This document shows, in pieces, positions 1,341 to 1,462 of a stretch of DNA of 3,540 bases. A program made the translations under genes and the position numbers. The first letter of the stretch is position 1; every line of letters begins with the position of its first letter. The stretch lies in assembly GCF_003334255.1 (NCBI RefSeq), contig NZ_QOWU01000119.1, one strand, 5' to 3'. This stretch comes from Escherichia coli (GTDB taxonomy: Bacteria; Pseudomonadota; Gammaproteobacteria; Enterobacterales; Enterobacteriaceae). The notes below the pieces were generated by a model. The model ran no database searches and was not told where the DNA came from. It was given only the letters and a program-made list of their open reading frames with translations.

Positions 1341-1462
1341 TTATCAAAACGAGAATGACGCGGGTTTAGTGGCACCGGGCTGAACTCACCGGGAGGCACC
1401 CGGCACCATGTTCATGGTGATACAGAAATGCGGCTTCAGCCCCTCTCCGGAGGGGCTTTCTT
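1341..1462 (+). ncRNA. Hypothetical small structured RNA of about 120 nt, running from the candidate -10 to the intrinsic terminator
   Basis: There is no credible ORF in this interval. Consecutive hairpins: CCGGG-aggca-CCCGG (1389-1403), perfect palindrome CACCATG-tt-CATGGTG (1404-1419), and the terminator hairpin at 1438-1457 followed by a T-rich tract. Purely structural inference. Confidence 0.25.
1438..1462 (+). terminator. Rho-independent terminator, + strand
   Basis: AGCCCCTC (1438-1445), loop TCCG, GAGGGGCT (1450-1457): an 8-bp GC-rich stem followed by TTCTTAT. Confidence 0.6.

Follow-up and report, generated by a model that had tools for sequence, protein, structure and literature searches.

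The stretch of Escherichia coli DNA analysed here (3540 nt, hereafter the window) contains the 3′ end of a DNA adenine methyltransferase gene, two tRNA genes with CAT and TCG anticodons, an open reading frame (ORF) for a lipoprotein, a small RNA (sRNA) and a gene for an esterase of the SASA/NanS-p type. Both an identical copy of the sRNA and the closest relative of the whole window (97.7% identity) reside in the late regions of lambdoid prophages, where the gene order is Q antiterminator, tRNAs, sRNA, esterase, holin, lysozyme and terminase. The first of the tRNAs (284-445 region) is assigned as Met (CAT) by ARAGORN, and its homologue is annotated in RefSeq as a tRNA-Ile, of the lysidine-modified ileZ type, as found in the tRNA clusters of Stx phages. 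The lipoprotein ORF (724-1152, + strand, 142 aa) carries the lipobox LTTGC, and its residues 53-142 match TolA domain III (NF007065, E = 1.7e-29; phrog_5772); its relatives are annotated as tolA in RefSeq. This TolA-like gene occupies the slot of stx in Stx phages, and stands where E. coli 2018-166 (NZ_CP075632), a strain with the same sRNA allele, has an upstream STnc100 module. As a matter of speculation, the TolA-domain lipoprotein might serve as a decoy that counters colicins or filamentous phages.

A reading made from the sequence only had singled out a 16-bp palindrome, CACCATG-TT-CATGGTG, as a possible site for a dimeric regulator, lying inside a putative sRNA and about 270 bp upstream of the esterase gene. 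The description of the element holds. Positions 1404-1419 read CACCATGTTCATGGTG, with two perfect 7-nt arms, CACCATG (1404-1410) and CATGGTG (1413-1419), on either side of a TT spacer. The esterase gene starts with the ATG at 1690, 271 bp past the end of the palindrome, and the palindrome falls within a match to the Rfam STnc100 family at 1259-1468 on the + strand. As a palindrome, it is statistically unremarkable. On the basis of 300 dinucleotide-preserving shuffles, 0.62 perfect 7 + 7 inverted repeats with a spacer of at most 2 nt are expected per window, with a probability of 0.45 of finding at least one, and the actual window has three such loci, at 1404, 2498 and 2736. As the motif CATGGTG is also present at 1289, the left arm of the palindrome has two candidate partners.

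The RNA that carries the palindrome is a member of STnc100, a family of gammaproteobacterial prophage sRNAs, by score, structure and context. The match to Rfam RF02076 scores 165.6 bits against a gathering score of 47 (E = 1.3e-38) and spans the full model (positions 1-206 of 206). No other Rfam family scores above threshold over the palindrome site; the hits to OmrA-B and anti-hemB (minus strand) are weak and fall below threshold. The Rfam consensus structure pairs the left arm, 1404-1410, with GCAUGGUG at 1288-1295 in a long-range closing helix, P1. The ends of the RNA, this helix and the segment that follows it are assigned as follows.

1252-1281, + strand: candidate promoter, with −35 TTGCCT at 1252-1257 and extended −10 TGTTAAAAA at 1273-1281.
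1288-1464, + strand: predicted sRNA transcript of the STnc100 family, ~176 nt, its 5′ end placed by PasD2 homology and its 3′ end by an intrinsic terminator.
1288-1295, + strand: 5′ strand of P1, GCATGGTG, the probable 5′ end of the transcript, from the PasD2 5′ end and covariation with 1404-1411.
1404-1410, + strand: left arm of the palindrome, CACCATG, the 3′ strand of the closing helix P1 by the Rfam structure line and covariation, with U1411 opposite G1288.
1411-1437, + strand: linker cassette of 27 nt running from the core to the terminator, which contains the spacer and right arm and is the counterpart of the seed-bearing stretch of PasD.
1413-1419, + strand: right arm of the palindrome, CATGGTG, an allele-specific second copy of the P1 5′ strand within the variable linker.
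1438-1464, + strand: intrinsic terminator, AGCCCCTC-TCCG-GAGGGGCT followed by TTCTTAT, from terminator prediction and paired in all folds.

The transcript start was placed by comparison with PasD2, an sRNA whose 5′ end was mapped by RNA-seq and RIL-seq to position 741157 of NC_011601 (PMC8550237 supplement), at the G of GCAUGGUG. This mapped end aligns to the G of GCATGGTG in the window, and hence G1288, the first base of the P1 strand, is the most likely start of the RNA. The RNA would stop at the 1438-1464 terminator, giving a length of ~176 nt as compared with 172 nt for PasD2. The spacing of the candidate promoter is compatible with a start at 1288, TTTGTTAAAA is kept in relatives, and PasD2 carries TTGACT-17-TTAAAA at the equivalent position. 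A scan with a strict sigma-70 consensus called no promoter for the sRNA, so the promoter is put forward only as a candidate, based on the PasD2 5′ end and the conserved upstream bases. We disregarded the outermost helix of the Rfam model (3 bp, 1272-1274), as the transcript probably starts downstream of it.

The left arm of the palindrome closes the conserved core of the RNA through pairing with the RNA 5′ end. In the window all eight positions of P1 pair, seven of them as Watson-Crick pairs and one as the wobble G1288·U1411. Relatives were collected from IMG/VR with two successive anchors, a 20-nt one ending just 5′ of the palindrome and one located in the 3′ tail, and 51 non-redundant representatives were aligned with MAFFT. 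In this set P1 is paired in 92.6% of cells and has changes on both sides at six of its eight pairs; for example, one pair is UA in 37 relatives and CG in 14 with none unpaired, and another is GC in 25 and AU in 22. Taken jointly, five helices give a covariation score of 0.310, compared with 0.145 for shuffles (none of 500 reaching the observed value) and 0.046-0.099 for slid partners. The covarying closing helix GCAUGGUG/CACCAUG expected of an STnc100 member is thus present. The sequence-only reading had also offered that the palindrome might be simply a stem in the RNA. The left arm does form one strand of a stem; the partner that is conserved and covaries with it, however, is 1289-1295 and not the right arm.

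Enclosed by P1 are further elements of the core.

1299-1314, + strand: hairpin H1, with pairs 1299-1301:1312-1314 and 1302-1303:1309-1310 and A1311 bulged.
1319-1324, + strand: CUGGUG, 5′ strand of a likely pseudoknot helix, complementary to 1373-1378, with the complement co-changing in relatives.
1362-1387, + strand: conserved hairpin whose loop, CACCGG (1373-1378), is the likely pseudoknot partner.
1389-1403, + strand: hairpin CCGGG-AGGCA-CCCGG, directly abutting the P1 3′ strand and highly conserved in the Rfam consensus.

H1 is better represented as 3 + 2 bp with a variable bulge at 1311 than as the 5-bp stem of Rfam; drawn with the bulge it is 100% paired among the 51 relatives and has two covarying pairs. 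The hairpin at 1389-1403 served as a search anchor, so its invariance in the collected relatives is by construction. The pattern of changes among relatives points to a likely pseudoknot in the STnc100 core, 1319-1324/1373-1378, that is absent from the Rfam structure line. At least five contiguous pairs are present in 94% of the 51 representatives, with double changes in all six pairs, and the two strands change together (AUCAGCA/UGCUGAU, CCAGUC/GACUGG, AAAACCAG/CUGGUUUU and UCAGUCAAA/UUUGACUGG).

The right arm is not conserved. It lies within the linker, which in the window reads UUCAUGGUGAUACAGAAAUGCGGCUUC. We considered 120 relatives that have the tail and terminator of the window (same-tail relatives). 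The palindrome is perfect in 40 of these, 22 with the arms CACCATG/CATGGTG and 18 with CATCATG/CATGATG. In the other 80 it is degenerate, 79 having a central C·A mismatch (CACCATG..CATGATG) and one having two mismatches. The spacer of same-tail alleles is also variable (TT, CT, TG, CG or TA). The closest full-length relative, at 97.7% identity, keeps CACCATG but has the linker replaced by CAATGGCACATAGCGCCACTCTC and lacks a right arm; between its sRNA and that of the window, similarity drops across the linker, resumes at the terminator and falls again 3′ of the terminator. Where the window linker begins with the repeat of the P1 5′ strand, the Rfam STnc100 consensus has CAauAuacag. More broadly, the sequences found 3′ of CACCATG comprise dozens of unrelated tails, some of which are tRNA genes. 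Among 5426 complete E. coli genomes, a relative of the sRNA is present in 1129, and the exact 59-nt stretch of hairpin, palindrome and linker in 72.

Pairing between the two arms is at control level in the 51 relatives. An arm-to-arm hairpin is 36.1% paired, compared with 34.5% in shuffles and 18.6-32.8% for slid partners, and has changes on both sides at five of six pairs, compared with 4.2 ± 0.8 in shuffles, of which 188 of 500 reach five. The right arm is probably single-stranded or only transiently folded. As to its origin, the tail CATGGTGA...CCCCTCTCCGGAGGGGC resembles the head of the module, CATGGTGA-ATC-CCCCTGAGCGGAGGGGC, with a score of 26.25 against 10.7 ± 3.2 for shuffled sequences, none of 2000 scoring as high. 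From this resemblance we infer that the right arm may descend from a module head that was partially copied in tandem. Such a copy, with its first hairpin turned into a terminator, would place a repeat of the P1 5′ strand directly after the P1 3′ strand, and a palindrome would then arise automatically.

We consider it probable, at about 0.78, that the palindrome results from how the RNA is built and serves no purpose as a DNA site. The locus would encode a prophage sRNA of ~176 nt in the STnc100/PasD family, whose core is closed by P1 through pairing of GCAUGGUG (1288-1295) with CACCAUGU (1404-1411), the left arm of the palindrome being the 3′ strand of P1. A 27-nt linker that varies among alleles then follows, in the place where PasD relatives carry their target-pairing seed; by analogy, the linker with the right arm may have a seed role here. 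The linker of the window allele repeats the P1 5′ strand (CAUGGUG) at its beginning, which makes the DNA palindromic at this point. Both the STnc100 family and its P1 helix are already known and catalogued, which makes the finding an ordinary one. The palindrome is best read as a strand of a conserved helix in a known STnc100 RNA adjoining an allele-specific repeat of the partner strand.

An alternative that we regard as unlikely, although it survives better than the others, is an allele-specific RNA switch, in which the right arm of the window allele would compete with the RNA 5′ end for the left arm. The RNA would then exchange between a P1-closed form, in which the linker and its seed are exposed, and a form with a local hairpin. 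As a 2-nt loop is sterically impossible, this hairpin would have 6 bp and a 4-nt loop (CACCAU-GUUC-AUGGUG); the 5′ GCAU would pair with AUGC at 1428-1431, and the exchange would tune the accessibility of the seed and of the 5′ end. For 1288-1464, predicted ensemble energies are nearly equal, −67.2 kcal/mol when constrained to P1 and −67.7 when constrained to the hairpin. Unconstrained pair probabilities predicted for the window allele are 0.57-0.69 for the hairpin and 0.28 for P1, so that some of the RNA molecules may adopt the hairpin. The minimum free energy (MFE) structure depends on the chosen 5′ end, which leaves room for such an exchange. Since the single-sequence MFE flips both with the 5′ end and with single-base allele changes, we dropped it as an arbiter between P1 and the hairpin and used folding only for the near-equality of the energies.

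The alleles themselves offer points on both sides. Among same-tail relatives, the left arm CATCATG always occurs with the right arm CATGATG (18 of 18), which restores a perfect palindrome, and the U/G combination was not seen; the association of left-arm U with right-arm A has a Fisher p of 0.04, uncorrected for relatedness. This pairing hints at some selection for contact between the arms. The CAUCAUG/CAUGAUG allele is moreover predicted to favour the hairpin, and G in the right arm is linked to the AAATGC linker variant, which is the source of the alternative partner for the 5′ end. Against these observations, two-thirds of the same-tail alleles are unable to form the hairpin (predicted probability 0.00), and the predicted P1 probability is 0.7-0.97 in most of these variants, with 0.16 in one common variant; in the rest of the family the hairpin is absent. 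P1 also has a co-transcriptional head start, and the arm variants may merely be linked haplotypes. The C-to-U change of the left arm occurs as well in alleles that have other tails and no right arm, being tolerated in P1 as a G·U pair, and competition between the arms is therefore kept as a rival of low probability. Slightly more doubtful still is the specific proposal that, in the minority alleles CACCAUG/CAUGGUG (that of the window) and CAUCAUG/CAUGAUG, the sRNA would be two-state, with the states altering seed availability or decay that depends on the 5′ end.

Much less probable is a DNA operator, at which a dimeric regulator of the phage or host would bind the 7-2-7 inverted repeat and control the sRNA or the downstream late genes; comparison of homologous sequences does not support it. 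The dyad symmetry of the palindrome is perfect, its arms vary less than its spacer among alleles, and related prophages have helix-turn-helix genes. However, inverted repeats as large as this one are expected at random (P = 0.45, as above), and P1 covariation fully accounts for the left arm. Conservation of both half-sites is not seen: the palindrome is degenerate in the 80 of 120 same-tail relatives noted above, and the closest full-length homologue lacks it, as does most of the family. The sequence-only reading had itself held that degeneracy or absence in otherwise conserved homologous regions would speak against an operator, and this is what the relatives display. The palindrome is also a single-copy element that lies ~120 nt inside the transcribed RNA, away from a promoter. 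No additional copy with up to three mismatches occurs in the window. A search elsewhere in the prophage, which the sequence-only reading had proposed, gave no recurrence above chance: an 18-kb late region with an identical sRNA holds no second copy, and its one hit with three mismatches is at chance level.

The operators of phage repressors and Cro are clustered at promoters and have both half-sites conserved. With these the palindrome shares dyad symmetry as its sole common feature, being single, located within a transcript and not conserved in its right half. Its half-sites are centred 9 bp from each other, a little less than is typical for helix-turn-helix dimers.

Least probable of all is a small ORF, in which ATG 1408 (CACC-ATG-TTC-ATG-GTG...) would open a frame of 35 codons (1408-1515, + strand): GGGAGG lies 11 nt 5′ of this ATG, three linker variants, in which the linker measures 27 or 30 nt, preserve the frame between ATG 1408 and the terminator, and some EHEC STnc100 copies carry ribosome footprints with RCV up to 3.2 (PMC5331693), but the frame crosses two terminators, the peptide N-termini are unrelated between linker variants, and the grounds on which we ruled out a coding reading of the ATGs in the palindrome are that the A-run at 1469-1474 ranges from 6 to 9 bases among alleles and so shifts the frame, and that both the ATG and the Shine-Dalgarno-like GGGAGG sit within conserved helices, so that the 35-codon ORF is probably not coding.

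Considered as an STnc100 RNA, the sRNA of the window has the closing helix, hairpins and terminator that are general in the family. Its location is also that of other members, between Q and the tRNAs (and stx, where present) on one side and the SASA/NanS-p esterase, holin and lysozyme genes on the other (PMC12370729, PMC12711010). It differs in that the gene upstream is that of the TolA-domain lipoprotein and not stx, whereas STnc100 copies in Stx phages lie 75 nt downstream of stx2B (PMC12370729). STnc100 copies overlap the Hfq-bound EcOnc27/sRNA103, an EHEC copy downstream of stx2B (PMC12711010). Strain EDL933 has eleven STnc100 copies, ten of them with appreciable reads, and STnc100_4 was verified by Northern blot (PMC5331693). 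Members of the STnc100/PasD family are expressed and Hfq-bound in both EHEC and EPEC (PMC8550237, PMC5331693, PMC12711010).

The EPEC members PasD1 and PasD2 were detected by Northern blots and RIL-seq (PMC8550237), and a 2026 preprint has proposed that STnc100 shares ancestry with these Hfq-dependent RNAs. PasD1 and PasD2 of EPEC E2348/69, which are homologues of EcOnc13, have the same 5′ head as the window RNA (GCAUGGUGAAUCC plus hairpin) and a closing helix of the P1 type, and PasD2 is directly upstream of an esterase gene. The PasD seed and the positions of RIL-seq chimeras fall in the 3′ part equivalent to the window linker. In contrast, the middle of the PasD core has diverged from the window RNA, and the PasD linker has a UGUGAG seed and a different terminator, both absent in the window. 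The UGUGAG seed was not found in the window linker, and the alignment to PasD2 loses similarity past the head. As both seed and linker differ, the window RNA is not PasD, and identity with PasD was rejected on these grounds.

The region 3′ of the sRNA terminator contains a convergent candidate sRNA on the minus strand (~1468-1520, terminator at 1496-1475). It is identical at 48 of 53 positions to an EPEC RIL-seq candidate, E2348C_1409.E2348C_1408.IGR, over a match that covers the terminator and the CUUGCG seed (here with a 1-nt insertion, CUUGCCG), and in Rfam it gives a weak OmrA-B-like hit of 21.8 bits.

Some prophages carry tandem STnc100 modules, 275-484 bp apart and with different linkers (L001, at ~8540-8720 and 9020-9240; L033, L034, L066 and L153). 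The same core is also found 8-10 nt 5′ of tRNA genes, with up to four cores in an array (L085, 1507-2621; L087, 2082-4341; L086; L117, 9925-10222), and the contigs with such arrays of cores and tRNAs also carry isrK and C4 RNAs. Given its position upstream of tRNA genes, the core acts like a 5′ leader whose 3′ cargo can be exchanged, this cargo being either a tRNA or a linker with its terminator.

With the palindrome assigned to a helix strand of a catalogued family of prophage sRNAs, a candidate operator is removed from this locus, and the finding itself is of little weight. The STnc100/PasD RNAs to which it leads adjoin stx and lysis genes in pathogenic E. coli, and are abundant and Hfq-bound. 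If the two-state reading of the minority alleles were true, swapping linkers would adjust what a single conserved prophage RNA scaffold targets as well as how active it is. More generally, the comparison of relatives suggests a conserved, probably pseudoknotted 5′ scaffold with interchangeable 3′ cargo, which may be a linker with its seed and a terminator, or tRNA genes. This view of scaffold and cargo could guide work on how the STnc100/PasD RNAs act.
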